From Gammaproteobacteria bacterium (lineage in GTDB: Bacteria > Pseudomonadota > Gammaproteobacteria > SZUA-229): a stretch of DNA of 41,436 nt. The DNA lies in NCBI GenBank assembly GCA_023136715.1, contig JAGLQT010000073.1:1-41436 (forward strand). The letters are read 5' to 3'. Positions 1,161 through 25,786 of the stretch are shown here, in pieces. How positions within the stretch are numbered: position 1 is the stretch's first letter; the number at the start of each line of letters is the position of its first letter. Below the pieces are notes generated by a model. It worked only from the letters and a program-made list of their open reading frames with translations. It had not been told where the DNA came from and searched no databases. The translations under genes were made by a program, and so were the position numbers.

Positions 1161-2066
1161 ATGAGCCAAACATTCAGCCGGCTACTAAGCCAGACAGAAC
1201 AACTACAACCTTTGCTAAAACACTTACCGGTTGTTATCAATTTTGTGCTGATTATTGCCTGCGCCCAGCTCATGTCTGAACTCATATGGATGCTGCTGGA
1301 TGATTCCAGCACTGAAACCATGGCTGTTACTGCACCGGTAAACTCTGTTACAAACAACAACCGTAGCGACGCAAAACAATCACAACAACAGGCTTTTCGT
1401 AATCTGAGCAGCGCCCACCTATTTGGCATTGCTGAAACAAAAGGAACAGTGGTGAGCGCCGACAACGTGCCTGAAACAAAACTTAACCTGGTTTTGAAGG
1501 GTGTGCTGGCTGCGGGCACATCATCAATAGCCAGCGCCATTATTGCCCGGGGCAGCAACGGCAAAGAAGAAATCTACGGCATCAATGACAAAATTCCGGG
1601 CGGTATAACGCTGAAGGAAATCCATCCAGAACATGTTATTTTAGAACGTCAGGGGCGACTCGAAACTCTACGCATGCTGAAAAGCAAAGGCTCTGATCAA
1701 ACCTCTTCAAGCAACAGGACCCAGTCAACGACATCTGCAATATCAACCGCCTCTTCAAAAAAGTTGAAGAATATTCGCAACGACATAATTAAAGACCCTA
1801 CCTCATTCCGCAAATACGCCTTACCCGTTGTGGTTAGGGAAAATGGCAAACAGATCGGTTATCGCCTACAAGCTCAACAAAATAGCGACTTGCTCACTCA
1901 GGCGGGCATTAAGCCTTCCGACGTGATTACCTCGATCAATGGCATCAAGCTCGATGATATGAAAAACAGTATTGGCGCACTGAACGCACTTCGCTCAGCA
2001 AATAATGTCAACATTACTGTAAAAAGAAACGGCGCCGAAGTGCCGCTTAATATTCAGTTACAATAA
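1161..2066 (+). CDS. gspC: type II secretion system protein GspC
   Basis: 301 aa with one N-terminal TM helix (LPVVINFVLIIACAQLM), a Ser/Thr/Gln-rich linker and a PDZ-like C-terminus (GYRLQ...GIKPSDVITSINGIKLDD). It sits directly upstream of gspD. Confidence 0.8.
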   Translation: MSQTFSRLLSQTEQLQPLLKHLPVVINFVLIIACAQLMSELIWMLLDDSSTETMAVTAPVNSVTNNNRSDAKQSQQQAFRNLSSAHLFGIAETKGTVVSADNVPETKLNLVLKGVLAAGTSSIASAIIARGSNGKEEIYGINDKIPGGITLKEIHPEHVILERQGRLETLRMLKSKGSDQTSSSNRTQSTTSAISTASSKKLKNIRNDIIKDPTSFRKYALPVVVRENGKQIGYRLQAQQNSDLLTQAGIKPSDVITSINGIKLDDMKNSIGALNALRSANNVNITVKRNGAEVPLNIQLQ

Positions 2067-2105
2067 ACACCGCCGGATACACAAAAACGCAACAGGATTT
2101 AATGC

Positions 2106-5655: not shown

Positions 5656-5662
5656 GTAGATT

Positions 5663-6898: not shown

Positions 6899-7474
6899 GC
6901 TCAACAATACCGCTGCCAGACCGCCGCCTATGGCACCATACAAATGCGCATCGGTGACGACTCGACCCGCAGTCAGTTCTTCTGACCCCGGCACTGCACC
7001 GTACACCACTTCCCAAATCAGCTTGCCGATCAGGATAAACAACAGCGCATAACCACTGGCAGGATAAACGCGTATTTCACGCAAACCTCCATAAATAAAC
7101 AGACCATGCAGCACACCAGACAAACCCACATAAGTACTCACATCAGGATTAAACCAGTACAGACCAACACCGACAAAAACAGCAGAAACCAAAATCACAA
7201 ACAACCAGTGAAACACACTGCCATAGCTACTGAAAAAAAAGGCCACGATTGTTAGACCTGCTATATTCAACCCCCAATGCGCCCAGTTTAAATGCACAAT
7301 ATTGCCGCTCAATAATAACCAGTAATGCCCGTTATCGATCAGCGCCTGGTCATAACGCCAGTTAGGCACCTGACCACTGGCCTGCAAATAAGCACTCAAC
7401 AATAAAATAAACAACCACAAAGCATGATTCCACTGCATAGAAATACGGTTTTTGATAGGCAGCTCAAGGTGCAT
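6842..7474 (-). CDS. rrtA: rhomboid-family intramembrane serine protease, rhombosortase-like
   Basis: About 200-210 aa and six hydrophobic helices with no extra domain. It carries the rhomboid HxNxxHxxxN motif (HLNWAHWGLNIAGL), the catalytic GxSG (YVGLSGVLHGL) and a distal His (DAHLYGAIGGG). Size and N-terminal WRYDQALIDNGHYWLLLSGNIVH resemble rhombosortase. An alternative start is M13 at 7438. The 3' end overlaps gspF by 57 nt. The family call is confident (about 0.85); the rhombosortase subtype is less so. Confidence 0.6.
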   Translation of the reverse strand: MHLELPIKNRISMQWNHALWLFILLLSAYLQASGQVPNWRYDQALIDNGHYWLLLSGNIVHLNWAHWGLNIAGLTIVAFFFSSYGSVFHWLFVILVSAVFVGVGLYWFNPDVSTYVGLSGVLHGLFIYGGLREIRVYPASGYALLFILIGKLIWEVVYGAVPGSEELTAGRVVTDAHLYGAIGGGLAAVLLSLFDQLVKVKNGQQDTEHD

Positions 7475-7580
7475 TTGGTACTATTCCCAAAACAATATAT
7501 TAATTAGTGAATTTTACTAATTTGGCGCACTCTAACTCGTTGCGTCATAAGTGGCAAAATAATATTAAGGAGCAGAAAAC

Positions 7581-8021
7581 TTGAAATCACAAATCAATAC
7601 CATGAAAACACATCAAAGGGGCTTCACCCTGATTGAACTCATGGTTGTTATCGTTATCCTCGGCATTCTCGCCGGTGTCGTCGTCCCCAGAATTATGGAT
7701 AATCCGGACAAAGCACGTGTCGCCAAAGCCAAACACGATATCACGGCACTGGAAAGTGCACTGGATGTTTATCGACTGGACAATTTTGTTTACCCAAGCA
7801 CCGATCAGGGACTGGAAGCATTAGTCACTCAGCCTGGCGAAGCACCAAACTGGAAGTCTGGTGGTTACATCAAAAAACTGAAGAAAGACCCCTGGGGTAA
7901 TGACTACCTCTACCTCAGTCCCGGTCAGCACGGTGAGTTAGATATTTACTCACTGGGTGCCGATGGCGCTCCCGGCGGCGAAGGCGTATTTGCCGATATC
8001 GGTTCATGGGACATTGAATAA
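7581..8021 (+). CDS. gspG: type II secretion major pseudopilin GspG
   Basis: Prepilin motif [20 protein letters not shown] with a GspG-type body ([17 protein letters not shown]). AAGGAG (7567-7572) lies 8 nt before TTG 7581. The alternative ATG 7602 has no SD but gives the usual short leader. Confidence 0.93.
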
Positions 8022-8598
8022 AACAAAGTTTAATACCCGTTTTAAGCTTCCAGGTTTTAGCAGAGTAGATGGATTTACTCTGCTCGAACTGATGATTGTT
8101 ATCGTCATTGTCGCAATTCTTTTTTCTTTTGCCACACTCACCATCCGCGGTAGCTCCCCCGAAGACCTGATCAAGGAAGAAGCCCATCGACTGCACCGTT
8201 TAATCCAGCTGGCGCTTGAAGAAGCCGTGCTAAAAAATACTGAATACGGGCTTGAGTTCAAATCAAACAGCTACCGCTTTCTAACTTACACCGGCGACCA
8301 ATGGCAGGCCATCAGTAGCGACAAACTGTTGCGTGAACGAGAGCTCCCCGAAGATATGGAAATCGAACTCGCCATTGAACAGACTGACATCATCATCGGC
8401 GATACTGCTGAAACCATTGATCAAGACAGCGACGAAGAAGATGAAGAAAAAAAAGCCAAGCCCCAGGTTTTCCTGCTTTCCAGTGAAGAAATTACCCCCG
8501 AATTCTCAGCCCGTTTTTCACTCCACGGCATAGAAACCAGCTACATTGTCACGGGCACTATCGATGGCAAAAACGAGGTCAAAGCCAGTGACTTTTAG
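7963..8598 (+). CDS. gspH: type II secretion minor pseudopilin GspH
   Basis: Prepilin motif [19 protein letters not shown] at the gspH position. The start is uncertain: GTG 7957, ATG 7963, TTG 7990 (GAAGG 5 nt upstream) or TTG 8014. All overlap the gspG 3' end and give leaders of at least 20 aa. An acidic insert is present ([12 protein letters not shown]). Confidence 0.85.
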
Positions 8599-8971
8599 AC
8601 ACGGGCACAAATCTTTTAATCGGGGCTTCACACTGATCGAAGTGCTAATCGCGCTCACCATTATCGCCATCTCTCTGGGCGCCATCATGAGTGCATCGGG
8701 TAATCAGGCACATCAAACCACTTATCTAAAACAAAAAACACTGGCACACTGGGTGGCTATGAATGAGATGACACAACTGCAACTGAATGAAGAATGGCCT
8801 TCCATCGGTGAAAAAAAAGGTAGCTCGGAGATGGTTAATACCGAATGGTTCTGGCTGCGAACTACCAAAGAAACACAGGATGAAGATGCTCGTCAGGTCG
8901 AGTTCCAGATATTTTTAGATAAAGACAGAAGCAATGGCCTGACCCGACTCATCGGTTATGTGAACAGATAA
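8564..8971 (+). CDS. gspI: type II secretion minor pseudopilin GspI
   Basis: Prepilin motif NRG/FTLIEVLIALTIIAISL with gspI size and position. Candidate starts are ATG 8564 or GTG 8588 (GAGG 9 nt upstream). Both overlap the gspH 3' end. Confidence 0.88.
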   Translation: MAKTRSKPVTFRHGHKSFNRGFTLIEVLIALTIIAISLGAIMSASGNQAHQTTYLKQKTLAHWVAMNEMTQLQLNEEWPSIGEKKGSSEMVNTEWFWLRTTKETQDEDARQVEFQIFLDKDRSNGLTRLIGYVNR

Positions 8972-9595
8972 ATGCAGTCTTTAAAGCATCATAAAAGCAA
9001 TGGCTTTACTCTCATTGAGCTGCTGATCGCCATCGCCGTATTCGCAGTAATGTCAGTGATGGCTTATGGTGGCCTCAGCCAGATTATCGAAAACAACCAG
9101 CATTCAAAAAAAGAACTGGAGCGACTGCAATCGGTACAGCGTGCCGTTTTAACCATCAGCCGTGATTTCACACAAATCATCGAACGCGATATCCGCGATG
9201 AATACGGCAACCCCCAACCTTTTTTAGACGTCAGCAACGAACTCGATTATTTAGTGGAGTTCACCCGCAATGGACGCCGTAACCCGGCAAAATTAAAACG
9301 CAGCAATCTTTTGCGGGTAGCCTACCAGTTTGAAGATGAAAAACTGACTCGCCTGTTCTGGCCACAGCTGGATAGAGCACCGGCCATGGAAGCTTATGAA
9401 ACCACCCTGCTCGATCAGCTGGAACGGGTTGAATTACGCTACCTGGATAATGCAAATAAATGGCACGATGAATGGCCACCACTCAACCCTCAACAGCAAG
9501 CAGGTGGGAATCCTCCACAACTCTCCGCTATCGAGTTCATACTGGAACTAAAAGGCTGGGGTGAAATCACCCGGCTTTATCAGGTAGGCGGCTGA
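8972..9595 (+). CDS. gspJ: type II secretion minor pseudopilin GspJ
   Basis: Prepilin motif SNG/FTLIELLIAIAVFAVM. 207 aa. The ATG immediately follows the gspI stop. Confidence 0.9.
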   Translation: MQSLKHHKSNGFTLIELLIAIAVFAVMSVMAYGGLSQIIENNQHSKKELERLQSVQRAVLTISRDFTQIIERDIRDEYGNPQPFLDVSNELDYLVEFTRNGRRNPAKLKRSNLLRVAYQFEDEKLTRLFWPQLDRAPAMEAYETTLLDQLERVELRYLDNANKWHDEWPPLNPQQQAGGNPPQLSAIEFILELKGWGEITRLYQVGG

Positions 9596-10542
9596 TGCGA
9601 TTGCCCTGTTCACAAAAAGGTGTGGCTTTAATCACCGCTCTGTTGATCGTTGCACTGGCCACGGTGATCAGCGTCGAACTCAGTACCCGATTACAACTGG
9701 ACATTCGCCGTACAAGTAATATTATTGCCAGTGATCAGGCTCTGCTATACATGATGGAAGCGGAACACTGGTCTCGCCGTATTTTAAGAGATGATCGCCT
9801 TGATAATACTCATGATTCTCTTGATGAAGACTGGGCCATGGAAATACCACCCCTGCCCGTGGAAGGTGGCAGCATACAGGGCAAGTTGAGTGATTTACAG
9901 GCCTGCTTCAATCTCAATTCACTTTATCAAAACAACCCGTCAAACGATACTCTCGCTCAGGATCGCTTCAGGCGTTTGATGCAACAATTGGATTCACCAC
10001 CAAACACGGATCTGTCACAGGCTATTATCGACTGGATTGATAATGAACCTAACACTATCACCGGAATTCCTGATGGCGCTGAAGACAGCTACTATCTCAA
10101 TCTGGAATGGCCTTATCGCAGTGCCAATCAGGCGATTAAAAGTATCAGTGAGCTCCGCTTGATCAGAGGATTTGAGGACGATGAAGTCTTCCAGCAAATA
10201 CAAAACTGGACTTGCGCTTTCGGAGCAGCTGCGCCCATCAACGTCAACACAGCACCCATAGAAGTGCTAGAATCTTTGGCGAACGGAATTAGCACTACAC
10301 AGGCCGCTAGCATTGTTACAAACAGGCAAGACACCCCTTATCAAACAACGAACGATTTCGTGACTACAAACAATCTTTCTACTATCATAACGAACACAAA
10401 CGGCCTCTCTATCAGTAGCGAATACTTCCTACTGGAAACCGAAGCCAACATTGGACAGGCAAGAACTCTGATGTACAGCATTATTCATAGAGAAAATAAT
10501 GGCGACACGCAGGTAATTGCTCGCTCACAGGGAGCCTATTAG
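9595..10542 (+). CDS. gspK: type II secretion minor pseudopilin GspK
   Basis: 315 aa with an N-terminal GVALITALLIVALATVISVEL helix and no Glu5-type prepilin motif, as is typical for GspK. DEDWA and YYLNLEWPYRSAN motifs are present. ATGA-type overlap with gspJ. Confidence 0.9.
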   Translation: MRLPCSQKGVALITALLIVALATVISVELSTRLQLDIRRTSNIIASDQALLYMMEAEHWSRRILRDDRLDNTHDSLDEDWAMEIPPLPVEGGSIQGKLSDLQACFNLNSLYQNNPSNDTLAQDRFRRLMQQLDSPPNTDLSQAIIDWIDNEPNTITGIPDGAEDSYYLNLEWPYRSANQAIKSISELRLIRGFEDDEVFQQIQNWTCAFGAAAPINVNTAPIEVLESLANGISTTQAASIVTNRQDTPYQTTNDFVTTNNLSTIITNTNGLSISSEYFLLETEANIGQARTLMYSIIHRENNGDTQVIARSQGAY

Positions 10543-11786
10543 TGGCTGACACATTACTCATACACTTTAATCCAAAAGACGCAGACAATGCTGCATGGTC
10601 TTTGGTTAATAGTGCAGGTGAACTGGCTACCATGCTTTCCCATGGCTCACTAAATGATGCCAGCCCACTCGCAGAAAAACATAGAACTGTTGTTTTACTC
10701 GATAGCACAGCGATACATGTTGACTCGATTAAACTACCTATCAAGAACCATCAAAAGCTATTGCGCGCCGCACCATTTGCTCTTGAAGAAAAAATCGCTG
10801 ACGACATTGATGACCTTCATTTTGTTGCAGGCAAAACTGCCAGTGACGGTCGCACACCGGTTGCTGCGATTAGTCGCAACACCCTGGACGGCATTCTTGA
10901 AACTTTAAAACAATACAAAATAGAACCTGCTGCCATAATTCCAGACGCTCTTTGCCTGACTGCAAATTCGCAACAATGGTCTGTGCTACTACACGATGAT
11001 CAGGCCAATATACAGTTTGATACTTTTGATGGAGGTGAATTTGATCGCAATATACTCGCTCTGTTGCTTGAGTCAGAGTTACTGAAAGAAGACCGCAAAA
11101 CACCTGAAAAAATTATCCTGTTTACCACCGATGGTGATGACACAGATACTCAGGAAATCAATGACATCATTCCTGATGGCACCGAGCTAATCCGAGTTAG
11201 CTACAACACCCATCCTTTAGTTGTCTATTGCGGTGAATATAATCATGCTCTGCCACTGAACCTTTTACAGGGTGAATACAAACCAGAATCAAAAACCAGT
11301 GTTAACTGGCATCGCTGGCGCTTTGCTGCCTCACTAGCTGTAATATGGTTGTGCTTACATCTTGGCATTACCAGCGTACAGAAACATGCGTTTCAGGACA
11401 GCAATAAAAAACTGCAAGTTGAAATTGATAACATCTACAAAAAAGCTTTCCCACAGAGCAAGCGTATTGTAAATGCCCGAGTTCAGATGGAACAGAAACT
11501 CGATGAGCTAAAAGGTTTGGGCAAGGCCGGATCAAACACCAGCTTGATCACTTTACTTGCAGATTCAAGTGCCGCATTATCCAGTGAAAAATCGGTAGCC
11601 ATTCAGTCCATCAACTATCGAAACAAGACTATTGATATTGAAGTGACTGGTGCAAACCTGCAAAACATCGAACAACTAAATAAAAAACTGAACAATACTT
11701 CTTTGAAAGCAGAAATTATTTCTTCATCCTCAGAGAAAAACCAGGTGAAAGGTAATATTCGAATAAAACGTGCAAACCAATCATGA
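10542..11786 (+). CDS. gspL: type II secretion protein GspL
   Basis: 414 aa with a cytoplasmic domain, a single TM (FAASLAVIWLCLHLGI) and a periplasmic domain. The GTG start overlaps the gspK TAG (TAGTG). Position is between gspK and gspM. Confidence 0.88.
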   Translation: MADTLLIHFNPKDADNAAWSLVNSAGELATMLSHGSLNDASPLAEKHRTVVLLDSTAIHVDSIKLPIKNHQKLLRAAPFALEEKIADDIDDLHFVAGKTASDGRTPVAAISRNTLDGILETLKQYKIEPAAIIPDALCLTANSQQWSVLLHDDQANIQFDTFDGGEFDRNILALLLESELLKEDRKTPEKIILFTTDGDDTDTQEINDIIPDGTELIRVSYNTHPLVVYCGEYNHALPLNLLQGEYKPESKTSVNWHRWRFAASLAVIWLCLHLGITSVQKHAFQDSNKKLQVEIDNIYKKAFPQSKRIVNARVQMEQKLDELKGLGKAGSNTSLITLLADSSAALSSEKSVAIQSINYRNKTIDIEVTGANLQNIEQLNKKLNNTSLKAEIISSSSEKNQVKGNIRIKRANQS

Positions 11787-12286
11787 AGCAACAACTCGAC
11801 ACTTTTAACATCTGGTATAGCAGCCTGCCAACTCGTGATAGAAACCTGCTCATCGCCACTGTCACACTGATTGTTATCACGCTATTTTATCTCCTGGTGT
11901 GGGAACCAATACATCAGGGGCGTGACCAGCAACAACAGAAATTTAAATCACAACAGGACATATACAGCTGGATGCAATCGGCATCCAGGGAATTGCAGAC
12001 ACTTAAACGCTCGGGCACTAGAAAAGTATCCAGCAAACAACCTATTTCACTAATTATTGAGAACAGCGCGAAGATTTCAGGATTAAAACAATATATCAAC
12101 AAGATTGAGTCCTCCGGTAAAAATGGCGCGCGCGTTAAGATCGACTCCGCTTCTTTTGATCAACTACTCGTCTGGCTAAACACCCTGGAACAACAACACG
12201 GTGTCACTGTCACCACAGCCAGCATTGAACGCAATGACAAAACCGGAACCATCAGTGCACGTCTCTCTTTTGAAAAAATAGAATGA
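11783..12286 (+). CDS. gspM: type II secretion protein GspM
   Basis: 167 aa with one N-terminal TM (LLIATVTLIVITLFYLLVW). ATGA overlaps at both ends. Canonical position. Confidence 0.88.
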   Translation: MKQQLDTFNIWYSSLPTRDRNLLIATVTLIVITLFYLLVWEPIHQGRDQQQQKFKSQQDIYSWMQSASRELQTLKRSGTRKVSSKQPISLIIENSAKISGLKQYINKIESSGKNGARVKIDSASFDQLLVWLNTLEQQHGVTVTTASIERNDKTGTISARLSFEKIE

Positions 12287-13053
12287 AAATAAAATATTAC
12301 ATAATCACTGGCACATTGGCTCTAGCCACGTTTTTAATCATTAATATACCTGCGGCGCCAGTGATCAAAGCGCTTAAAGATCAACTGCCACAAATTAAAA
12401 TTCAGAATGTCAGCGGAACGCTATGGCAGGGTTCTGCCCAACAGGTCACCATACAATCCAAACACGTTTTGAAAAATATAAACTGGTCTGTTTGCATTAG
12501 TCATTTATTAATGGCTGAAGCCTGTATTGAATTTGACGCCATGTACAACAAGAGCCCATTAAGCGGTCAAGTAAGTGCTGACATGAATAAAAACATTCAG
12601 GCAAACAATATTAAAACAACCATGAGTGCGCAGGCGCTCAGTCAAATGATCACCATGCCAATGGGTGAAATTGCTGGTGATATTTCTGTTGACCTGGAAA
12701 CATTAAACTGGCGACAGGGAGAAATACCTTCTGCTAACGGCGTTATAAAGTGGAATAAGGCCAGCATCACTATTGCTGAAACAGCTCAACTCGGTGACAT
12801 AAGCATTACCCTGACAGAATCCGAAGAAAACCCGATTAATGCCAAAATATCTAATCAGGGCGGTCAGCTTTCAATAGACGGCCTGGCCTCTGTTAATGCA
12901 ACGACCGATTACAGTCTCGATCTAAGCTTCACGCCGAATAAAAAAGCCAGTAAAAACCTGAAAGACAGCTTAAGTTTATTCGCCAAACCCCAGGCCAATG
13001 GTAGCTTTTCTGTAAAAAACAGCGGCAACCTGAAACAACTAGGCTTTATGTAA
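12283..13053 (+). CDS. gspN: type II secretion protein GspN
   Basis: 256 aa with an N-terminal TM and a GspN-like motif (IQNVSGTLWQGSAQQV...NINWSV). It is the last gene of the cluster and is coupled to gspM. Confidence 0.8.
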   Translation: MKIKYYIITGTLALATFLIINIPAAPVIKALKDQLPQIKIQNVSGTLWQGSAQQVTIQSKHVLKNINWSVCISHLLMAEACIEFDAMYNKSPLSGQVSADMNKNIQANNIKTTMSAQALSQMITMPMGEIAGDISVDLETLNWRQGEIPSANGVIKWNKASITIAETAQLGDISITLTESEENPINAKISNQGGQLSIDGLASVNATTDYSLDLSFTPNKKASKNLKDSLSLFAKPQANGSFSVKNSGNLKQLGFM

Positions 13054-17545: not shown

Positions 17546-17570
17546 AAGGGGCTTTATAGCCCCCTTTTTT
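17546..17570. terminator. bidirectional rho-independent terminator between convergent galE and fccB
   Basis: GC stem GGGGC(T)/(A)GCCCC with a 4-nt loop. It is flanked by an A-run upstream and T6 downstream (AAAAAAATGAAGGGGCTTTATAGCCCCCTTTTTT). Confidence 0.7.
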
Positions 17571-17579: not shown

Positions 17580-18866
17580 CTATTCCTCTTTGGCGAATGC
17601 ATCAGCCGTAATGGACTTATACCAACCCAAGGCATATTTTGATTCCTGAAGCCGAGTTTTCTTTGAAGCTTTATTCGGACTATCCTTAACCGATACCGCT
17701 TTAATTTTATTATCTTTCAATCGATAAACCGATGCTCGTGAAATAGCATATTTTTTTGACAACAGACTATAGATGCTAGTGCTATAGACCATCTCCGGTA
17801 TAGCCACGCCTCTTATATCAGAGACAATGTTTGCTGCACAAATCTTTGCCTGAGTATTGGCTGCATGCCCCGTTTTTGGCATATCACCCACTATGCTCGC
17901 GTCACCAATTACATGTATATCTTTCTGCTTTAAAGATTCGAATGTTTTCTGATTGACTGGGCACCAGCCATCCTGATCAGTCAAGGCGGTGTTAACAGCG
18001 ATAGTGTTCGCCTGTTGCGGTGGAATAAGATTAACCACTGCCCCCTTAAATTCCTGTCCCGAGCTGGAAAATAATTGCATACTGCCTGCATCCACTCTTT
18101 CGATGCGACCAACATCACTACCACTGACCCATTCGATCATTCCCGGATATAATTTTTTCCACCCCGCCTCAAACAGTGACTGCTTGGCAAAAGTTTTATT
18201 GGAATCCACAATCAGAACTTTGGATTTCGGCTTGGCTTTTTTCAGATAATAAGCGATGAGGCTGGCACGTTCATAAGGAGCCGGTGGCGCACGAAATGGT
18301 TCCGGTGGTGGCGCAATAATAACAACACCGCCATCGTCCATTGCCTGTAGCTGCTTGCGTAATAAAATTGTTTGTTCACCCGCTCGCCATGCATGCGGCA
18401 TGATGTGGCTTGCCTCATCATCATAACCCTTGATCAGGCCCCATCTAAAGCCGATGCCTGGAGAAATAACCAGACGATCATAACTCAGCTTGTTTCCATT
18501 GTTCAGGATAACGATTTTTTTTGTAGCATCAATATCGATAACCGTGTCATTTACCACATGGATTTTATTATGGTCACGCAAGCGATCATAATTATGTGTA
18601 ATAAATTCCATGTCATGCAGCCCTGCCAGCACGGTATTGCTGAACGGACAGGTAACAAATTCTTTTTTTGGTTCGACCAGTGTGACGTCGATAGCCGGAT
18701 CAAAGTGCTTGAGGTAATTCGCACAGGTCGCACCACCAAAACCACCGCCGATAATAACAACTCGGTAAGCGGCTGTTGCACTCGCTCTGATCGGCAAAGC
18801 CAGCATACTTGATGCACTACTGACACCAACAAGCTTGATAAAATCTCTACGGTTTAAATTTCTCAT
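17580..18866 (-). CDS. fccB: flavocytochrome c sulfide dehydrogenase, flavoprotein subunit (FccB/SoxF-type)
   Basis: Tat signal (RRDFIKLVGVSSAS), FAD-binding VVIIGGGFGGATCA, 428 aa. The start overlaps the stop of a monoheme cytochrome gene (ATGA). Confidence 0.88.
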   Translation of the reverse strand: MRNLNRRDFIKLVGVSSASSMLALPIRASATAAYRVVIIGGGFGGATCANYLKHFDPAIDVTLVEPKKEFVTCPFSNTVLAGLHDMEFITHNYDRLRDHNKIHVVNDTVIDIDATKKIVILNNGNKLSYDRLVISPGIGFRWGLIKGYDDEASHIMPHAWRAGEQTILLRKQLQAMDDGGVVIIAPPPEPFRAPPAPYERASLIAYYLKKAKPKSKVLIVDSNKTFAKQSLFEAGWKKLYPGMIEWVSGSDVGRIERVDAGSMQLFSSSGQEFKGAVVNLIPPQQANTIAVNTALTDQDGWCPVNQKTFESLKQKDIHVIGDASIVGDMPKTGHAANTQAKICAANIVSDIRGVAIPEMVYSTSIYSLLSKKYAISRASVYRLKDNKIKAVSVKDSPNKASKKTRLQESKYALGWYKSITADAFAKEE

Positions 18867-19177
18867 TGTTTAGCCTCATAGAAATATTTGGCAAGTAAGT
18901 TAATTTCTTCATCGCTATAGGAGCTGGCGTGTCGATCCATAATCGTTGCTCTTTCCGTACCCTCTTTAAATCCGTGCATGTACTCAGCAAGTTCATGATC
19001 ACTATGATTATCTATGGAAGGAATTCGCTTTGAACCCTGTCCACCAGGGCCGTGACAGGTGACACACATAGTGGCTAACAATGCACCACGATCAATGCCC
19101 TGTGCTGTAGCAGAACTGGAAAACAACAACGCAACAAAACCGACTATTGTAAATAGTTCCTTCATCATTTTTATCAT
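18863..19177 (-). CDS. fccA: flavocytochrome c sulfide dehydrogenase, monoheme cytochrome c subunit
   Basis: 104 aa with a signal peptide and a single CVTCHGPGG heme motif. Translationally coupled to fccB. Confidence 0.8.
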   Translation of the reverse strand: MIKMMKELFTIVGFVALLFSSSATAQGIDRGALLATMCVTCHGPGGQGSKRIPSIDNHSDHELAEYMHGFKEGTERATIMDRHASSYSDEEINLLAKYFYEAKQ

Positions 19178-19231: not shown

Positions 19232-19268
19232 CAAAAAACAGCCGGATGAAAAGTTCCACCCGGCTGTT
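19232..19268 (-). terminator. rho-independent terminator downstream of the cytochrome-porin gene
   Basis: On the minus strand, an ACAGCCGG/CCGGCTGT stem (8-9 bp, 14-nt loop) is followed by TTTTTTGTT. It begins about 30 nt after the stop at 19299. Confidence 0.6.
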
Positions 19269-19298: not shown

Positions 19299-20579
19299 CT
19301 AGAAGCCAACCGCCAGTTGAACCGTCAGGCGATCATCATCATCCGCTGAATCCTGTGCACTCCTGTCCCAAAACTCAACAAAACCTTTTATATTTTGTTC
19401 GAAGTAGTAGGCAACATTTAGCACCAGTTCATCATAGCTATCTGCACCATTATTTTTCTCATAGCTATCGAAACGTATCAGCGGTACCCAGGTTGGTGCG
19501 CCACTGGCCGCTTTAAAGACATGATAAGCCTGAACACTCATCGCATCATTGTCATTTTCGGTACCTGTTTGAGCTGCTGAACCATCATCGCTGGCTGAGA
19601 CAAACATCAACTGTACACGTGTGTTGCCGATATCAGCCTGGGCATCCAGACCAATCCTTGTGTACTCCAGTTCAGCATCAGATGCTGTCTGGTTAGGTCG
19701 TGAAGATACTACTTCACCTACTGCGCCACCGTTACAGTCGGAATCAATATCAACAATATCAGCAGCAGAACAGGTATGAGCAGCAACTTGGCCATTGACC
19801 ATGAAGCCACCAATCATGATGTCCTTGGTAACATCAAAGGCAACACGTGCATGAATCGTACTGGCATCTTTACCTTCTGAAACATCAGTAGAATCAGAAC
19901 CTGCGGGGCTATCAGCCTGAGCAGAAATACCTACACTGTAGAACAACTGATCTATAGGTCTGCCTGTCAATACCAGATTTTGTCTGCGACTGTTTAAGCT
20001 GCCATCGTAGCCATCAAATGCCTGGTTCATCGCACCGGTACCCGCACGGGTCATACGGAAATGAAGACCAAACAGCCCATAGGGATCTGCACGCATCATC
20101 TCCCCCCAGGTAAACTGAAGATTCAAAGCTTTGCTATGGTTATACGCAAGTACAGCCGATGGTATACCAATCTCAAAACCGTATGCATTTTGAGCTTCGT
20201 CCTCTGCTTCCAGTTCAAAGAAACCTGACCAGTTCTCACCGACGGCACCAGCAACAACAATTTCTGCCTCATGCAGAGCACGCGTGTTCGCAGCTTCAGC
20301 GCTGTCTTTCTTGTCATAAGGTCGCGCAAAGATTAAGGCAGAAACACCAACACTATTTTCTTCCGCTAAATCCTTAAACGACATACGATCGCCATCCGGC
20401 ATTCGATAACCCAGCTCTTTGTACACTCGGCCTTTCTTACTCAGCTGAGGCCATGCATTGTGGCAATACGAGCAATTTTTACCCGTATCTCTCGCGAATG
20501 ATGGAACCGCCTCTGCCGTGAGCGTCGCAAATGCGAACCCAACCGCAGTTAATATTGTTACTATGTTTCTTATTTTCAT
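19299..20579 (-). CDS. fused monoheme cytochrome c / outer-membrane beta-barrel protein (Cyc2-like architecture)
   Basis: Signal peptide MKIRNIVTILTAVGFAFATLTAEA. One CxxCH (C36SYCH40) sits in SFARDTGKNCSYCHNAWPQLSKKGRVYKELGY. About 370 aa of amphipathic strand-like sequence follow with no TM helix, ending ...RLTVQLAVGF (C-terminal Phe). GAGGAG lies 6 nt before the ATG. The ORF is near certain; the Cyc2 assignment is moderate. Confidence 0.55.
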   Translation of the reverse strand: MKIRNIVTILTAVGFAFATLTAEAVPSFARDTGKNCSYCHNAWPQLSKKGRVYKELGYRMPDGDRMSFKDLAEENSVGVSALIFARPYDKKDSAEAANTRALHEAEIVVAGAVGENWSGFFELEAEDEAQNAYGFEIGIPSAVLAYNHSKALNLQFTWGEMMRADPYGLFGLHFRMTRAGTGAMNQAFDGYDGSLNSRRQNLVLTGRPIDQLFYSVGISAQADSPAGSDSTDVSEGKDASTIHARVAFDVTKDIMIGGFMVNGQVAAHTCSAADIVDIDSDCNGGAVGEVVSSRPNQTASDAELEYTRIGLDAQADIGNTRVQLMFVSASDDGSAAQTGTENDNDAMSVQAYHVFKAASGAPTWVPLIRFDSYEKNNGADSYDELVLNVAYYFEQNIKGFVEFWDRSAQDSADDDDRLTVQLAVGF

Positions 20580-20936
20580 TAATTACTCCTCGATTTTTTA
20601 TTTTTGATCGAATAACTCCCCCATTGAACAACAAACATCGTTGCTCTAGTACCAATAGTACTCCCAGTAAACCTTATAATCTAATATAGATCAATTAATT
20701 ACCAATTAAACATTAAATAACTTCAGATAGTTAACGCATTTTTTATATGGTATCTAAATAGAGATTGAGCGCTGTTTAGAATAGATTTTTGATCTTTTTT
20801 AACGAGAGAGAATCAACATTCGTTGATCCACCCACAAAGCGAGGTGATTTTTCAGCTCAGCAAACGTGAGCTTTTGAGGAAAGCGCTTTTGTCCTTTTTA
20901 TTATTGCTCACTATCTTACAAGCAATGAACTAACAT

Positions 20937-21782
20937 TTATTTCACGGGCAATAAAGCATTACGTAAATCATAAACAATGCGATGCGTGTTGTGACAACGC
21001 GCGCACACAGTCACAGCAATTTCACCCATTAGTTTCTGACTGTCTTTCACCAATCCTTTACTGATGTTTGACTGTAATATTTCAAGGCGTTGCTGGGTTG
21101 CCTTGCCCAGTATTCGCTCCCGTGGATAGGCATCATTTTTATGACAGGCAATACAACTATCGCCTAGGTTTTGTAACTGACTGGCAAGCGTTTTGCTGGA
21201 TTTCAATGCTACAGGGTTATGACCATCATCCAGCGCAATCAAAATTCGATTAACAGATTCAGATAGCTCTTCCATATTATCTTCAAAACTCTGCTGAGAT
21301 CCGTTGATGCCTTTAAGCTTTAGCTCATCGTAATGAGGTGAACGGTGCATCGCCGTCACCAGTGGCTGATAATCCTGATGACAATCATCACAGGTACGCT
21401 GGATCATTTTCAGTGTTTTAGCAACGCGGGGCGCATCGCCCTTTTCTGCAAACATCTCAAGCTCAGGCAATAATCGGGGCTTAATCTCTTTTTCCCACTC
21501 GGGCACCATATCAGCAATTTTGTTGTAATCTTTCTCTAAACGAGCGATCCACTTTGCCATGCCGGGCTGGTCATTCAATTTGGCATATTCACTAATAGCC
21601 TGCATTTCCCGTCGTAGTTTAAACATAGTATGCAACCATACCTGTCGCTTATTAGCCGGCTTGTACCATTTCTCCAGTGACGCGGGAGGCACATCGATGC
21701 TGACTGCTTTACCTGCATAAGCTGGCACAACACCGGCAGCCAGTACAAAAATTAAAAATAACAAAGCAGAGATAAATTTCAT
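20937..21782 (-). CDS. secreted triheme c-type cytochrome (helical, class II / cytochrome c'-like first domain)
   Basis: The start is taken at M59 of the track ORF, which gives a clean signal peptide (MKFISALLFLIFVLAAGVVPAYA/G). Three CxxCH motifs are present (CDDCHQDY, CIACHKNDAY, CARCHNTHR), each at the end of a predicted helical segment. Confidence 0.7.
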   Translation of the reverse strand: MKFISALLFLIFVLAAGVVPAYAGKAVSIDVPPASLEKWYKPANKRQVWLHTMFKLRREMQAISEYAKLNDQPGMAKWIARLEKDYNKIADMVPEWEKEIKPRLLPELEMFAEKGDAPRVAKTLKMIQRTCDDCHQDYQPLVTAMHRSPHYDELKLKGINGSQQSFEDNMEELSESVNRILIALDDGHNPVALKSSKTLASQLQNLGDSCIACHKNDAYPRERILGKATQQRLEILQSNISKGLVKDSQKLMGEIAVTVCARCHNTHRIVYDLRNALLPVK

Positions 21783-21903
21783 AGTATTACTGGGCCAAAG
21801 AAACAGGACATTGATGATACTATAAGTCATTCTATTGTCATCAAAAAAATTAAGGCCGCCTTCTACTATCCAGCAGTATTCCCGTATTTGCCTGCCTTTC
21901 TTC

Positions 21904-21944
21904 TGACGTAGATCATTAGTAATATACTGATATGCCGTTATGAT
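21904..21944 (+). promoter_or_regulatory. candidate FNR/CRP-family box (TGA-N6-TCA) with a TATGAT -10 upstream of the hemerythrin operon
   Basis: cTGACgtagATCAt spans 21903-21916 and matches TTGAT-N4-ATCAA at 7/10. TATGAT at 21939-21944 places the box centre near -41.5 relative to the inferred start site. This is pattern matching only. Confidence 0.25.
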
Positions 21945-21971
21945 TTCGCCGTTCAATAATGAGGTGTTCTA

Positions 21972-22412
21972 ATGAATATTAAAGAATTTATGGCACATGA
22001 CCACAAAGAATGTGACCGGCTTTTTGCCATTGCAGAGAGTGCAGCCGCTAGCGAAGATTGGGATACAGCGACTCAGACATTCAATGACTTTATCCAGGCC
22101 ATGGAACGACATCTTGGTGTTGAGGAAAATGAACTTTTCCCTGCCTTCGAAGAGGCTACCGGTATGACCATGGGACCAACTGAGATGATGCGTTCGGAAC
22201 ATGACCAGATGCGGGTGCTTTTTGCTGAGATGCGTGACGCCATGGAACGCCAGCACAGTGATGACTATCTGGGCATATCAGAAACGCTGTTGATATTGAT
22301 GCAACAACACAATATGAAGGAAGAGCAAATCCTCTATAACATGATGGATCAGCATCTGACAGATGACATCAGCCATTGGCAGCAAAAGTTTCAGGACTGG
22401 GACAAGAGCTAA
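21972..22412 (+). CDS. hemerythrin-domain protein
   Basis: 146 aa with repeated His/Glu cation-binding motifs (HDHKECDRLF, HLGVEENELFPAFE, RSEHDQM, QHNMKEEQILY). GAGG lies upstream. Confidence 0.85.
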   Translation: MNIKEFMAHDHKECDRLFAIAESAAASEDWDTATQTFNDFIQAMERHLGVEENELFPAFEEATGMTMGPTEMMRSEHDQMRVLFAEMRDAMERQHSDDYLGISETLLILMQQHNMKEEQILYNMMDQHLTDDISHWQQKFQDWDKS

Positions 22413-22684
22413 TGCCCAATGAGGTTTTACTGGATGTCAGCGAGCTAGCCCCGCCAGAACCTCTCACCCTGACACTCGAAGCCGCTGAACAACTGCAAGC
22501 CGGTCAATACCTGCGAATGTTGCACCGCCGTGAACCCTGCATGCTTTTCGGCAATCTCGACGACAATCATTTCAAATATTTTCAGCGCAAGGGCGCCATC
22601 TCTGCTGTCGAAGTCTTCATCTGGGCTGAAGATGATAAAGAAGCAGCCGAAGCTGTACAGGCAATAATAGACGCGCAAGACTAG
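22412..22684 (+). CDS. DUF2249-domain protein
   Basis: The start is taken at the ATG overlapping the hemerythrin stop (TAATG). The sequence LDVSELAPPEPLTLTLEAAEQLQAGQYLRMLHRREPCMLF is typical of DUF2249. Confidence 0.75.
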   Translation: MPNEVLLDVSELAPPEPLTLTLEAAEQLQAGQYLRMLHRREPCMLFGNLDDNHFKYFQRKGAISAVEVFIWAEDDKEAAEAVQAIIDAQD

Positions 22685-22689
22685 ATTTA

Positions 22690-23994
22690 ATGCACGCTAA
22701 TCTTTCACTACAGCAAGCTCCTCCCTTTTCCGTACCTGCACGATTTCTGGTCAGCGCCCCGCTGTTTGGCATGGTTGCGGCACTGGTCATGCTCTGGCAC
22801 GGGCCTGAGATGATTAGTCATCGCTGGACGCCTGAACTACTCGCCGTCACCCATTTCCTGACCCTGGGTTTTCTCGCCATGAGTATGCTGGGTGCCTTGA
22901 TGCAACTTATGCCCGTACTCATGGGCATGGTTATTCCACGAGCCATACTTTTTAGCAGCATGGTTCATACTCCACTATTTTTAGGTAGTGCCTGCTTAGG
23001 CCTGGCATGGCTGATTAATATTAACGAACTCTTCATCATTGCAATGGCGTTACTGGGGTTCTCTTTCACGATTTTTATCGTGGTAGTAACCGAGCGTTTA
23101 TTGCGTTCAAAAAATAGACACGTCACACGAAGCATGATGATGCTGGCATTGTTCGCCTTATTCATCACCGCCATTCTTGGTATCTACCTGGCCATGGGCT
23201 ATGCATCAGCAGACTTTTCACTGGCACGGCAATTAACTGATTTGCATTTGAGCTGGGGGCTGCTCGGCTGGGTAGCGCTGCTAATTATGGCCGTTGCCTA
23301 TCAGGTCATCCCCATGTTCCAGATCACCGATGAATACCCGGCCAGACATCAACGTTGGATGGGGTGGTCACTGTTCATCGCCCTGCTCGCCCTGAGTCTG
23401 GCTTATAACTGGCCATCGGAAATACTAAAATCCATCTCACAGATATTCCTCGCCGCCTGTTTGCTGATATTTGCACTCACCACCCTGTGGGTACTTCAGA
23501 CACGCCGTCGCCAGATACCTGACCTGACCATGATGTTCTGGCAACTTGCCATGGTCAGCCTTATTTTGCTGATACTGGCCTGGGCGATAGCCACATTGAT
23601 GAATTTTGATTTACCGGTACTACTGGGCGTACTGATCATTCACGGCTTCGCCATGACCACCATCACAGGCATGATGTATAAAATCATCCCCTTTCTTATC
23701 TGGTTACACCTGAGCACGCGTAATAAAAATTTACGTGACAAAGGCGAGAGAACTTCACAGGTAAAAGTGCCGCACATGCGAAAAATTATTCCGGAGGCCG
23801 CTGGCCTATGGCAATTTCGCCTTCATTCGATCAGCCTGGTATTGCTGATCCTGGCTGCCATCTGGCCAGACTGGTTTTTTTATCCAGCCACCTTAGTATT
23901 TTTCATAGCTCAGACGGCATTATTCTTTAATTTATCAAAGGCCGTTTATTTTTATAATGCAAAGATTGCTGAACTTGAAACTCAGCAGTCTTAG
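22690..23994 (+). CDS. 12-TM integral membrane protein with a threefold internal repeat (possibly NnrS-like); function unknown
   Basis: 434 aa with about 12 hydrophobic helices. The motif G-[FW]-x6-[GA]-x3-[QK]-x-[MI]-P occurs with identical spacing at residues 60-75, 193-208 and 319-334, each preceded by a His (H55, H186, H318). It starts 5 nt after the DUF2249 gene. Confidence 0.6.
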   Translation: MHANLSLQQAPPFSVPARFLVSAPLFGMVAALVMLWHGPEMISHRWTPELLAVTHFLTLGFLAMSMLGALMQLMPVLMGMVIPRAILFSSMVHTPLFLGSACLGLAWLININELFIIAMALLGFSFTIFIVVVTERLLRSKNRHVTRSMMMLALFALFITAILGIYLAMGYASADFSLARQLTDLHLSWGLLGWVALLIMAVAYQVIPMFQITDEYPARHQRWMGWSLFIALLALSLAYNWPSEILKSISQIFLAACLLIFALTTLWVLQTRRRQIPDLTMMFWQLAMVSLILLILAWAIATLMNFDLPVLLGVLIIHGFAMTTITGMMYKIIPFLIWLHLSTRNKNLRDKGERTSQVKVPHMRKIIPEAAGLWQFRLHSISLVLLILAAIWPDWFFYPATLVFFIAQTALFFNLSKAVYFYNAKIAELETQQS

Positions 23995-24062
23995 TTACTG
24001 TGACATATTGACCATTAAGGTTAAAATACAAAAAAAATATAACTAACCATCTACAACTTCCT

Positions 24063-24446
24063 ATGAACCAACTAGACGAATTAATACAACAAATAAAATC
24101 CAGACCTGAAAGCATCGAATTTCAGGACGTCATTAAGCACATCGATAAATCCTATGATTACACCCCTACCCAGTTTAGCAATGGCAATGCTGACGATTGC
24201 GTCACCAGCAAAGCAGGAGAGAATGAAGGCTCCTGTAAAATCTTTGCTTTCGGCTTGCTGAACAAGCTTGACGAAATACAAACCCTGAACTGCTTCGGCC
24301 AATATTATCGTGATGACGTATTGAAACACCCGGAAAACACAGATCATGCGAACATTCGCACTTTTATAAAACATGGCTGGAAAGATATAGTCTTTGACAA
24401 CATTGCACTAAAAAAACTGCATGATAAAAACATAGGCACCGCATAG
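24063..24446 (+). CDS. HopJ-family protein
   Basis: 127 aa. IEFQDVIKHIDKSYDYTPTQFSNG...GENEGSCKIFAFGLLNKL...YYRDDVLKHPENTDHANIR matches the HopJ type III effector family as recalled. Confidence 0.7.
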   Translation: MNQLDELIQQIKSRPESIEFQDVIKHIDKSYDYTPTQFSNGNADDCVTSKAGENEGSCKIFAFGLLNKLDEIQTLNCFGQYYRDDVLKHPENTDHANIRTFIKHGWKDIVFDNIALKKLHDKNIGTA

Positions 24447-24484: not shown

Positions 24485-25786
24485 CTATAAACCGCCTTTA
24501 CCTGTTGTTTTAACAATCAGCCAGGTAGCACCTATAGCAACAAGCAATAAAGCCGCCGCTGCCGCAACATTATTTAATAATTGTGGCGACACAAGCAGCA
24601 TTGACCCCAGCAGCAACATCATCACACCAGACAATAACTTTAATACCATTCCCTCGTGCTCAGAAAGTTTTCTTGAGCCCAGCTTCACAGTGAACAAAAC
24701 AACAATACTCAATAAAGGCAAAATATAAATCAGGTTATAAAGAACTAAATACAAATAATAACTTTCAGCGGGCAACGACCTTAAAGTCAAAATTCGTGTA
24801 TACACCATGGGAAACCCAGCCGTACACAATAGTTCATAACTATTTGCAACCACAGCTAAAACAATCGTAGCCGCCATAACTGTTGCCATTGAATCCAGAC
24901 GTAACAAGTTACGCATACGATCAAACAGCTTTGGCTTTGCATCATCAGAAATACTCAATGAAAAACCTTTTTTAAACCAGAAAAAGTCTTTGATATTTAC
25001 TAGCGCAATAAGAATAGCAATACTACCTGCAATTAATGTAATTAAACGCAGCTCACCTAAATAGATAAACAAATTTAACCAGGCCGCCATAAATAAAAAA
25101 TAGATAGCGCCTGAAAAAAATACAAAAACCCCGCCAATTAGTGCCATCCTGCTCCGACTTCGAGCGTGTACCATCATGCTAAGCAGAAACAGCAATACGA
25201 AAAAAGCACAGGGATTAAAGGCGTCCATGCCAGCAATAAGCACGGTTAACACAGGCAGGGAATAATTATCTGAGGATATATTACCCAATACGGGTATATC
25301 CACCGACGTTAATTCATTCTGATCAAATGTAAAGAGAATCCCATTATCAGGCTCATATTCTTTAGCAAACTGATAACACGCCTGCAAATGTGCTCTCAAC
25401 AACTGCCCAGTTGTTTTTTGGCTGTCATAACCCGTAATTGAGTTCCCGCAAAACATAAATGCCGGCACCGTATTTGCTTCACCGCCAAGTCGTGCCGCCA
25501 TATCAACAAAAGTTTTAACATTTTCCTGATGATGCACTAACTCTAAGGAATGCAGTTTCAACCATGGATACTCTTTATCCATCTCAATAATATCGGGTTG
25601 AGCCTGCAAACAATGAGGGCATTTTTCCGACCAGAAAAAATATAGGTGAATAATCGGCTGTTCATTGATATCTTTTTCATACCAGACAGGTTCACTTGAA
25701 GCTAAAGCATTAGTAACTGGCGAAACAAAGAGAACTAATACAATTAGTAAAAGCACACCAATTTTTTTGATTTCACCTGCGATCAT
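24485..25786 (-). CDS. thioredoxin-fold domain fused to a CcdA/DsbD-like multi-pass membrane thiol-disulfide transporter
   Basis: Signal/anchor sequence, then a periplasmic Trx-like domain with CPHC (FFWSEKCPHCLQAQPD). About 8 TM helices follow with membrane-embedded Cys motifs (DAFNPCAFF and ELLCTAGFP), as in CcdA/DsbD cores. Confidence 0.7.
   Translation of the reverse strand: MIAGEIKKIGVLLLIVLVLFVSPVTNALASSEPVWYEKDINEQPIIHLYFFWSEKCPHCLQAQPDIIEMDKEYPWLKLHSLELVHHQENVKTFVDMAARLGGEANTVPAFMFCGNSITGYDSQKTTGQLLRAHLQACYQFAKEYEPDNGILFTFDQNELTSVDIPVLGNISSDNYSLPVLTVLIAGMDAFNPCAFFVLLFLLSMMVHARSRSRMALIGGVFVFFSGAIYFLFMAAWLNLFIYLGELRLITLIAGSIAILIALVNIKDFFWFKKGFSLSISDDAKPKLFDRMRNLLRLDSMATVMAATIVLAVVANSYELLCTAGFPMVYTRILTLRSLPAESYYLYLVLYNLIYILPLLSIVVLFTVKLGSRKLSEHEGMVLKLLSGVMMLLLGSMLLVSPQLLNNVAAAAALLLVAIGATWLIVKTTGKGGL

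Follow-up and report, generated by a model that had tools for sequence, protein, structure and literature searches.

Contig JAGLQT010000073.1 of a Gammaproteobacteria bacterium (GenBank assembly GCA_023136715.1) was analyzed over its 41,436 nucleotides (nt); this whole stretch is referred to as the window. Its minus strand carries a gene, here named cyc2-like, coding for a precursor of 426 amino acids (aa) in which an N-terminal monoheme cytochrome c domain is fused to a predicted 16-strand porin. The genes for the cytochrome and flavin subunits of flavocytochrome c sulfide dehydrogenase, fccA and fccB, adjoin it downstream. The positions of these genes and of the features described below are collected in Table 1.

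Table 1. Positions of the cyc2-like gene, its domains and neighboring features in the window.
Feature	Position	Strand	Basis
cyc2-like gene, fused monoheme cytochrome c / 16-strand porin precursor, 426 aa	19299..20579	-	Open reading frame (ORF) with ATG start
Shine-Dalgarno-like AGGAG, 7 nt 5' of the cyc2-like ATG	20586..20590	-	Read from sequence
Sec signal peptide, aa 1-24, predicted cleavage between AEA and VP	20508..20579	-	Sequence inspection
Cytochrome domain, aa 25-77, VPSFARDT-GKN-CSYCH-NAW-PQL...GR.YKELGY	20349..20507	-	28-sequence alignment
Heme c attachment motif CSYCH (C36, C39, H40)	20460..20474	-	Sequence; invariant in alignment
Predicted 16-strand beta-barrel porin domain, aa 78-426, C-terminal ...VGF	19302..20348	-	AlphaFold2, Foldseek
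Loop L3, aa 160-198, between strands 5 and 6	19986..20102	-	Strand map, conservation
Loop L5, aa 266-303, acidic predicted extracellular insertion with C271/C285	19671..19784	-	Alignment; AlphaFold2 topology
fccA, 104-aa monoheme cytochrome c subunit of flavocytochrome c sulfide dehydrogenase	18863..19177	-	Pfam, PDB
fccB, 428-aa flavin adenine dinucleotide (FAD) subunit, Tat-type signal	17580..18866	-	Pfam, PDB
Intercistronic terminator-like hairpin, 14-bp stem and U-run, between cyc2-like stop and fccA	19237..19268	-	
Perfect bidirectional terminator-like hairpin closing fccAB, facing a convergent NAD-dependent epimerase gene	17546..17565	.	
Upstream secreted 281-aa cytochrome, cytochrome c'-like fold plus two further hemes, 3 CxxCH	20937..21782	-	

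Domain structure of the cyc2-like protein

The N terminus of the precursor, MKIRNIVTILTAVGFAFATLTAEA followed by VPSF, shows by eye a basic n-region, a hydrophobic core and a c-region with an AXA cleavage site. In an alignment of 28 family members, whose identity to the window protein reaches down to 43%, A24 and P26 at the predicted cleavage site are invariant. This agrees with the Sec signal peptide read from the DNA in an earlier note on this locus, and its position is conserved. That note also described a single heme motif about 12 residues after the cleavage site; CSYCH (aa 36–40) is the sole CxxCH in the protein and begins at the 12th residue past the predicted site. The conservation of the motif among orthologs, which the note had left to be checked, was found to be complete in the alignment: C36, C39, H40, P44 and L46 are invariant and, because this holds down to 43% identity, the heme motif is not a chance match. 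The consensus of the alignment reads AVPSFARKTxKNCSYCHNAWPQLNxKGRxFKExGY. The cytochrome domain is basic, with a pI of 8.7.

A search of 5.8 billion proteins returned 201 homologs of the cyc2-like protein. Among the 120 listed, 117 contain an N-terminal CxxCH, every source name is “hypothetical protein,” and the organisms named are Woeseiaceae, Thiothrix and Acidiferrobacteraceae. An exhaustive search with a family profile hidden Markov model (HMM) retrieved 3979 representatives at E ≤ 1e-3, 905 at 1e-10 and 132 at 1e-30; the Cyc2-type cytochrome signature is present in every N-terminally complete protein among the top 150 of the 3979. No curated Cyc2 model exists in Pfam or NCBIfam, and scans of the cyc2-like protein against these databases gave nothing usable, the sole match, to M2AP, being sub-threshold and dismissed. 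A search of PDB sequences yielded only matches local to the CxxCH and no sequence relative.

AlphaFold2, supplied with the family alignment, predicts 16 strands between residues 78 and 425, with a predicted template-modeling score (pTM) of 0.74. The predicted local distance difference test (pLDDT) values are mostly above 80 in the barrel; the heme domain is modeled with low confidence, as expected without heme. The topology is that of a porin: odd strands lead into long loops, even strands into short turns, and both termini are placed on the periplasmic side. The best PDB matches found by Foldseek are the 16-strand porins BpsOmp38, OmpT, OmpF and Omp36 (E about 1e-11, template-modeling score 0.6–0.7 on the target). 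The barrel of roughly 16 strands with an N-terminal heme domain, which the earlier note had expected, thus appears in the model, and the C-terminal ...LAVGF it had pointed out is found at the end of the protein, ...LTVQLAVGF, which is of the outer-membrane protein type. The barrel shares with general 16-strand porins (OmpF, OmpT, BpsOmp38, OprP/OprO) the fold, the strand number, a long loop L3 and a C-terminal aromatic residue. These porins, however, lack a heme domain and show no significant sequence similarity to the window protein in the PDB sequence search.

The longest conserved loop of the cyc2-like barrel is L3, with conserved D165, Y167, R175, T177, R178 and D192; it likely forms the constriction, as L3 does in general porins. 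Loop L5 holds the internal Cys pair noticed earlier, C271/C285, within HTCSAADIVDIDSDCNGG, and is predicted to be extracellular. Of the 28 aligned sequences, 10 have this insertion, among them every one with at least 50% identity to the window protein, and 18 lack it. Both Cys residues are kept in all sequences of at least 50% identity and are missing in the more distant insertion carriers P0051 and P0058; the Cys pair was therefore rejected as a general family feature and is clade-specific. The predicted extracellular loops together contain 23 acidic and 6 basic residues, as counted by strand parity and not from coordinates. A conserved ladder of acidic residues (E104, E106, E122, E124, E126, D127 and E128) is found on strands 2–3 and loop L2. 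On the model, such an acidic extracellular mouth and ladder would favor cations.

The resemblance of the barrel to general porins, and the fact that no curated family model names the cyc2-like protein, would suit an ordinary diffusion porin in which the N-terminal heme motif is vestigial or structural and takes no part in electron transfer. This is highly improbable. Among thousands of relatives, conservation is highest at C36, C39, H40, P44 and L46 and in the 40 residues around them, the neighboring gene codes for a c-type cytochrome in three separate clades, and homologs are proven heme proteins. The conservation of the heme site excludes a plain porin in practice.

Relationship to Cyc2

Cyc2 proteins were delimited by Keffer et al. 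(2021; PMC8406198) by a signal peptide, one CXXCH, the sequence AXPXFAR[Q/K][T/Y] just upstream of it, PXL four residues downstream, a length of at least 365 aa and a 16-strand porin, with a blastp cut-off of 1e-5 for homology to a cluster representative. The AXPXFAR[Q/K][T/Y] motif served as a filter in the pipeline of McAllister (2020) and Keffer et al. (2021) (PMC8406198). The cyc2-like protein has a signal peptide, a single CXXCH and a predicted 16-strand porin, is 426 aa long, and reads CSYCH-NAW-PQL around the invariant P44 and L46. The segment of the protein corresponding to the upstream motif, AVPSFARDT, fits at 8 of 9 positions, with D33 in place of Q/K. Within the clade of at least 50% identity, none of 33 sequences passes the literal motif, D, E or N occupying this position; among 117 wider homologs, 29 pass the strict expression and 109 its relaxed form. 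The context FAR..C..CH...P.L...G.....GY, which the earlier note had described as resembling the conserved Cyc2 N terminus, agrees with the published signature (Keffer et al., 2021) apart from D33.

Homology was assessed with two reference sets. Acidithiobacillus Cyc2 was taken as the first gene of rus operons located via rusticyanin, the rusticyanin query being verified as identical to PDB 1CUR; its N terminus reads ALPSFARQTGWSCAACHTSYPQLTPMGRMFKLLGF. BLASTP aligned the window protein with Cyc2 of A. ferrivorans over aa 1–79 at 39% identity (63 bits, pairwise E 5e-15), and hhalign aligned the window family with the Acidithiobacillus Cyc2 family at 98.4% over 170 columns. Reciprocal HMM scores between the two were 50 and 42 bits, and the Acidithiobacillus Cyc2 HMM scored the window protein at 41.9 bits, E 6e-6 when scaled to 1.8 billion sequences. 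The Acidithiobacillus barrel gave no alignment with the window barrel by BLAST or HMM.

The second set was built from the heme peptide QTGAACLSCHFQTFPALNAFGR of Mariprofundus ferrooxydans PV-1 (Keffer et al., 2021, Table S1), which led to 90 metagenome loci and 64 full-length proteins. It is anchored by one locus (L366) that matches eight PV-1 mass-spectrometry peptides at 58–100% and is PV-1-like, not PV-1 itself. Against these 64 proteins the window family was aligned by hhalign at 99.5% (E 1.6e-22), the 364 aligned columns spanning the cytochrome as well as the barrel. Identity in this comparison, the one that is full-length, is only about 18%; accepted Cyc2 proteins of different clusters share 17–23% (Keffer et al., 2021, Fig. 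S7; PMC8406198).

As judged by these alignments, the window protein is a genuine full-length homolog of the Cyc2 fused cytochrome-porins. The match to Cyc2 proposed in the earlier note stands, with full-length homology to the PV-1 type and N-terminal homology to the Acidithiobacillus type, and none of the outcomes that the note had listed as speaking against it was observed. By its sequence the protein belongs to a separate clade that the published motif filter would discard. Because this clade has D, E or N where the signature needs Q or K, it is named Cyc2-like, not Cyc2 sensu stricto, and is not labeled a validated Fe(II) oxidase. Fe(II) oxidation in vitro has been demonstrated for three Cyc2 proteins alone, one from each cluster: Cyc2 of A. 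ferrooxidans, Cyt572 of Leptospirillum and Cyc2 of PV-1, the last with a potential of +208 mV (PMC8406198).

Like PV-1 Cyc2 of Cluster 1 (PMC8406198), the window protein combines a signal peptide, one N-terminal CxxCH and a 16-strand barrel at a similar size, and both types share the motif ..P.FAR..x3-C..CH..P.L..GR.FK..G. The PV-1 type reads CHFQxFPxLNAFGR, with one extra residue between His and Pro, whereas the window protein reads CHNAWPQL. The window clade is further distinguished by D33 in place of Q/K, by its clade-specific L5 insertion with the Cys pair and by its genomic partner, which is fccAB in this clade and none, or cyc1, in the PV-1 type.

Like the rus operon of Acidithiobacillus (cyc2-cyc1-orf-coxBACD-rus), the locus places a gene for a fused monoheme cytochrome-porin directly before a gene for a periplasmic c-type cytochrome, which is the partner in Acidithiobacillus and the likely partner here. 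Acidithiobacillus Cyc2, however, is about 70 aa longer than the window protein, has a high-potential heme and belongs to an acidophile, and its partner is the diheme Cyc1, encoded in an operon with a terminal oxidase and rusticyanin. Complete rus operons with cyc2 and rusticyanin were also seen on two plasmids (L081, A. ferruginosus pCF3-2; L084, A. ferrianus p1MG), by which the iron-oxidation operon would be mobile in Acidithiobacillus.

Cyc2 homologs are already known from sulfur oxidizers and from many organisms that do not oxidize iron. Those found on sulfide chimneys, in Woeseiaceae, other sulfur-oxidizing Gammaproteobacteria and Emcibacter metagenome-assembled genomes (MAGs), and in “Ca. 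Tenderia electrophaga” have been suggested to draw electrons from Fe2+, metal sulfides or cathodes (Meier et al., 2019, PMC6850669; Eddie et al., 2017, PMC5371394). Meier et al. placed the homologs of gammaproteobacterial sulfur oxidizers beside the one from Tenderia. The loci related to the window come from the same taxa as these chimney homologs (Meier et al., 2019; PMC6850669), a likeness drawn at the level of taxa. No linkage to fccAB or to NapC-like or PdsA-like genes is reported in these papers (PMC6850669, PMC5371394).

Gene order downstream of cyc2-like genes

The product of fccA matches the Pfam families Cytochrom_C / Cytochrome_CBB3 and PDB 5N1T_B (E 9e-16). FccB matches FCSD_central (PF21706, 2e-45), FCSD-flav_bind (PF09242) and PF07992, as well as PDB 5N1T_A (E 1.4e-150) and 1FCD_A (E 3e-115); 5N1T_A and 5N1T_B are the subunits of the flavocytochrome c sulfide dehydrogenase of Thioalkalivibrio paradoxus. 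Located directly 5' of fccB with a 4-nt overlap, fccA forms with it a recognizable fccAB pair. The physiological role of this enzyme is still debated. The “sulfur-oxidation neighborhood” of the earlier note holds in a narrow sense only, for these two adjoining genes; the rest of the window is housekeeping, comprising a type II secretion operon, recG, degP, mutY, moaC and others.

The terminator-like hairpin between the cyc2-like gene and fccA has a folding energy of -27.5 kcal/mol (z -5.8). Of 19 related cassette loci, at least 12 have a similar hairpin after the cyc2-like gene, with compensatory changes in its stem. Its presence suggests attenuation, setting a high ratio of Cyc2-like protein to FccAB, or separate transcription.

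A scan of GTDB species genomes revealed 70 full-length relatives of the cyc2-like gene, the neighbors of which were clustered. Nearly all are from MAGs of sulfur-oxidizing Gammaproteobacteria, with Thiomargarita, Thioploca, Parabeggiatoa, Thiothrix, Woeseiaceae, Acidiferrobacterales, Chromatiales and Ectothiorhodospiraceae among the genera and larger groups represented; there are also a few Emcibacter, Nitrospirota and Methylomirabilota MAGs and one isolate, Hydrogenovibrio sp. 3SP14C1. The Emcibacter Cyc2-like proteins nest among gammaproteobacterial ones. On a quick neighbor-joining tree of the Cyc2-like proteins, calculated without support values, the type of the downstream cytochrome follows the clade, and a c-type cytochrome gene is next in three clades. 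In the clade of the window, 20 of the 21 loci that have downstream sequence continue with fccA and then fccB. Of the 14 loci that extend far enough, 11 encode a NapC/NirT-family tetraheme protein (PF03264; CymA-like) after fccB; neither the window nor L104, its syntenic relative at 84% identity, has this NapC-like gene. The Beggiatoaceae/Thiotrichaceae clade has a diheme cytochrome of about 208 aa next and then a NapC-like protein. The best match of the diheme cytochrome is NCBIfam “periplasmic diheme shuttle PdsA” (129 bits), although the PdsA-like and NapC-like matches are both below NCBIfam cut-offs. In the Woeseiaceae/Acidiferrobacterales clade the next gene codes for a triheme cytochrome of about 251 aa.

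The cassette order is kept while the flanks differ, being formed by a cob operon, an rnf operon, APH/NTP-transferase genes or the window's own set, and the linkage of the cyc2-like gene with fccAB spans 37–84% identity of the Cyc2-like protein. Two MAGs of the alphaproteobacterial Emcibacter (L037 and L060, the latter on a contig of 1.18 Mb) contain the whole cyc2-like, fccA, fccB, napC-like cassette; with the nesting of their Cyc2-like proteins among gammaproteobacterial ones, this suggests that the module has been passed on horizontally. Meier et al. (2019; PMC6850669) found the genus in abundance on their sulfide chimneys. Deeper Cyc2-like clades among the 70 loci have no constant neighbor. 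In clades lacking a constant cytochrome, a heavy-metal P-type ATPase with HMA domains (CopA/CcoI-like) is encoded repeatedly within a few kb, upstream in L020, L036 and L039 and downstream in L032, L048, L050 and L056; the three former loci also carry a gene for a monoheme cytochrome of about 100 aa just upstream of the cyc2-like gene.

No published linkage of cyc2 with fccAB, NapC-like or PdsA-like genes was found in a literature search of incomplete coverage, which is absence of evidence only, and the same incomplete search found no published account of the departure of this clade from the signature motif.

The tight and apparently ancient linkage to fccAB, kept in 20 of 21 loci at 37–84% identity among unrelated flanks, could indicate that the Cyc2-like protein is an accessory of sulfide dehydrogenase with no role in iron metabolism: the porin would be an outer-membrane channel for the substrate or product of the enzyme (HS-, polysulfide), and the heme would sense, gate or oxidize the sulfur species on its way through. 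Heme proteins commonly react with sulfide. Some relatives match the anion-porin family Porin_O_P in precomputed Pfam assignments, and Keffer et al. likened the Cyc2 barrel to the phosphate/polyphosphate porins OprP/OprO (PMC8406198). Such a role is nevertheless improbable. Sister clades keep the Cyc2-like protein without fccB, beside plain electron-carrier cytochromes, so the common denominator is electron transfer and not sulfide. A strongly acidic extracellular mouth disfavors anions, H2S crosses membranes without a channel, and a terminator-like hairpin stands between the cyc2-like gene and fccAB.

The gene order also bears on the direction of electron flow. The best-known role of the NapC/CymA family is feeding electrons outward from quinol. 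The presence of its members after fccB in 11 of 14 long-enough loci, and the Beggiatoaceae-type order of Cyc2-like protein, PdsA-like diheme shuttle and NapC-like protein, would therefore fit an electron outlet, in which electrons from sulfide (via FccB and FccA) or from quinol (via the NapC/CymA-like protein) pass through the porin heme to a soluble extracellular acceptor, such as chelated Fe(III), that enters the pore. An outer-membrane conduit with PdsA and CymA is a known outward cluster in Vibrio and Aeromonas (PMC8805035), and if the fairly high potential of Cyc2 from PV-1 (+208 mV) is shared, electrons from a low-potential donor would run downhill to the porin heme. If this were true, sulfur oxidizers could respire an external acceptor. 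The outlet is, however, unlikely: all characterized Cyc2 proteins take electrons in, solid acceptors are out of reach for a lone heme at the periplasmic side of a narrow pore, and the window itself lacks a NapC-like gene, the only candidate being a weak match (E 7e-4) inside the upstream triheme ORF, which was rejected as an ortholog. NapC/CymA proteins are, moreover, reversible, so their presence leaves the direction unfixed.

The Beggiatoaceae relatives resemble MtrCAB-PdsA-CymA and MtoAB/PioAB in that an outer-membrane conduit, a periplasmic shuttle and an inner-membrane NapC/CymA-type protein are encoded together. MtrAB, MtoAB and PioAB, however, consist of a separate decaheme cytochrome in a 26-strand porin and can reach solids, whereas the window protein has one heme fused to a 16-strand porin and does not belong to these systems; no decaheme cytochrome gene is present in the window.

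Upstream of the cyc2-like gene, the secreted triheme cytochrome is conserved only in the syntenic relative L104 (281 aa there as well) and is absent upstream in the other cassette loci, and its membership in the system is uncertain. The program-made ORF for it (20937–21956, minus strand, 339 aa, TTG start) is probably over-extended, the likely start being M59 (MKFISALLF..., nt 21782). A divergent group on the plus strand (21972–24446) comprises a hemerythrin gene (146 aa), a small ORF whose counterpart in L104 is a DUF2249 gene, and genes for a 434-aa protein without Pfam match and a HopJ-family protein; this group could be an O2/NO-sensing or iron-related unit beside the cytochromes. Both the triheme cytochrome and the hemerythrin genes were set aside as parts of the system, being conserved only in one syntenic close relative. 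A 433-aa ORF without Pfam family (24485–25786, minus strand) is also conserved in L104 (428 aa there). The type II secretion operon (1161–13053, plus strand) looks complete, with Pfam assignments for gspC, D, E and F, pseudopilins including J and K, and then L, M and N. GspE of the window is 93% identical to proteins of uncultured Gammaproteobacteria MAGs and 74–78% identical to those of Thiotrichaceae MAGs; the lineage is an uncultured gammaproteobacterium near Thiotrichaceae.

Proposed electron transfer and its significance

A cautiously preferred reading, judged somewhat probable, is that the cyc2-like protein is an outer-membrane electron gate between a small extracellular redox solute, most likely Fe2+, and periplasmic FccA. 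The biology of Sec, Ccm and BAM is established and is taken as the basis for the maturation steps. The precursor would be exported by Sec and cleaved between AEA and VP; the first approximately 50 mature residues would bind one heme c at CSYCH, and the remaining 350 residues would fold into the 16-strand barrel in the outer membrane. The small basic heme domain would be located at or in the periplasmic mouth of the barrel, after the Cyc2 model of Keffer et al. A small redox-active solute entering the acidic extracellular mouth would exchange an electron with the heme, which in turn would exchange it with a periplasmic c-type cytochrome, most likely FccA encoded directly downstream. FccA, which also accepts electrons from the sulfide-oxidizing FccB, would thereby collect electrons from extracellular Fe(II) and periplasmic sulfide and deliver them to the respiratory chain, the net flow being probably inward.

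The clade-specific cytochrome encoded next to the porin points to FccA as the partner, in parallel to the cyc2 and cyc1 pair of the rus operon. Among possible substrates Fe2+ is the likeliest, because the three characterized relatives oxidize Fe(II) and the predicted extracellular face is strongly acidic. Among other homologs, those of sulfur-oxidizing Gammaproteobacteria are expressed on metal-sulfide chimneys (PMC6850669), the Tenderia homolog responds to cathode potential, and in Sideroxydans the expression of cyc2 is high on both thiosulfate and Fe(II).

Several points weigh against an iron-oxidizing electron gate. The clade departs from the Cyc2 signature at D33, with none of 33 sequences passing the literal motif; its barrel does not align with that of Acidithiobacillus, and the full-length comparison with the PV-1 type is at low identity. 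Fe(II) oxidation by the window clade is suggested by homology, and the function of distant Cyc2 homologs was called uncertain by Keffer et al. (PMC8406198). No iron-related genes, cyc1 or terminal oxidase genes were found near the cyc2-like gene in the window. Strict co-transcription of the cyc2-like gene with fccA is doubtful, given the conserved hairpin, and the NapC/CymA-type protein after fccB in most cassette loci fits the opposite electron flow.

Divergent members of the family extend beyond the cassette loci. A degenerate DNA scan of genome contigs for PAFARKY...C..CH.A.PKLN gave at least 120 loci (L108–L227), mostly in Acidobacteriota and Gemmatimonadota MAGs; among the matches listed, the motif is very common in these and in Krumholzibacteriota and Aminicenantes MAGs, and no cultured iron oxidizer is present. 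The scan itself displays no more than the spread of the motif; by this measure, Cyc2-like proteins have a much wider distribution in soil phyla than in known iron oxidizers. Two Hydrogenovibrio genomes (L055, Hydrogenovibrio sp. 3SP14C1, 6001–7119; and L059) encode a Cyc2-like protein of about 30% identity, in L055 without the fccAB cassette. In a 2024 paper on iron-oxidizing Hydrogenovibrio isolates, no cyc2 was found by annotation (PMC11439405); standard annotation may overlook divergent genes of the Cyc2-like kind.

A wider reading of the gene order, put forward tentatively and rather unlikely, is that cyc2-like, fccA and fccB, with napC-like in most relatives, form a dedicated, horizontally mobile module that links sulfide oxidation in the periplasm with the outside of the cell by way of a porin with one heme. 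One possible version is the co-oxidation of Fe2+ and HS- released from dissolving metal sulfides via one shared cytochrome; another possible version is the passage of sulfide-derived electrons to an extracellular soluble acceptor. If this module exists, the clade would mark coupled iron-sulfur metabolism and not plain iron oxidation.

The gene cyc2 is widely used as a metagenome marker for microbial iron oxidation, and under the module reading FeGenie-style calls of “cyc2 = iron oxidizer” in sulfidic habitats would need re-reading. The clade of the window is common in marine sulfur oxidizers, is unnamed in every source listed and would be dropped by the literal motif filter. Its conserved fccAB partner offers a concrete hypothesis, in which FccA serves both the porin heme and FccB as electron partner; it bears on the use of iron sulfide minerals by sulfur bacteria and on how much of the “iron oxidation potential” inferred from cyc2 counts is real.

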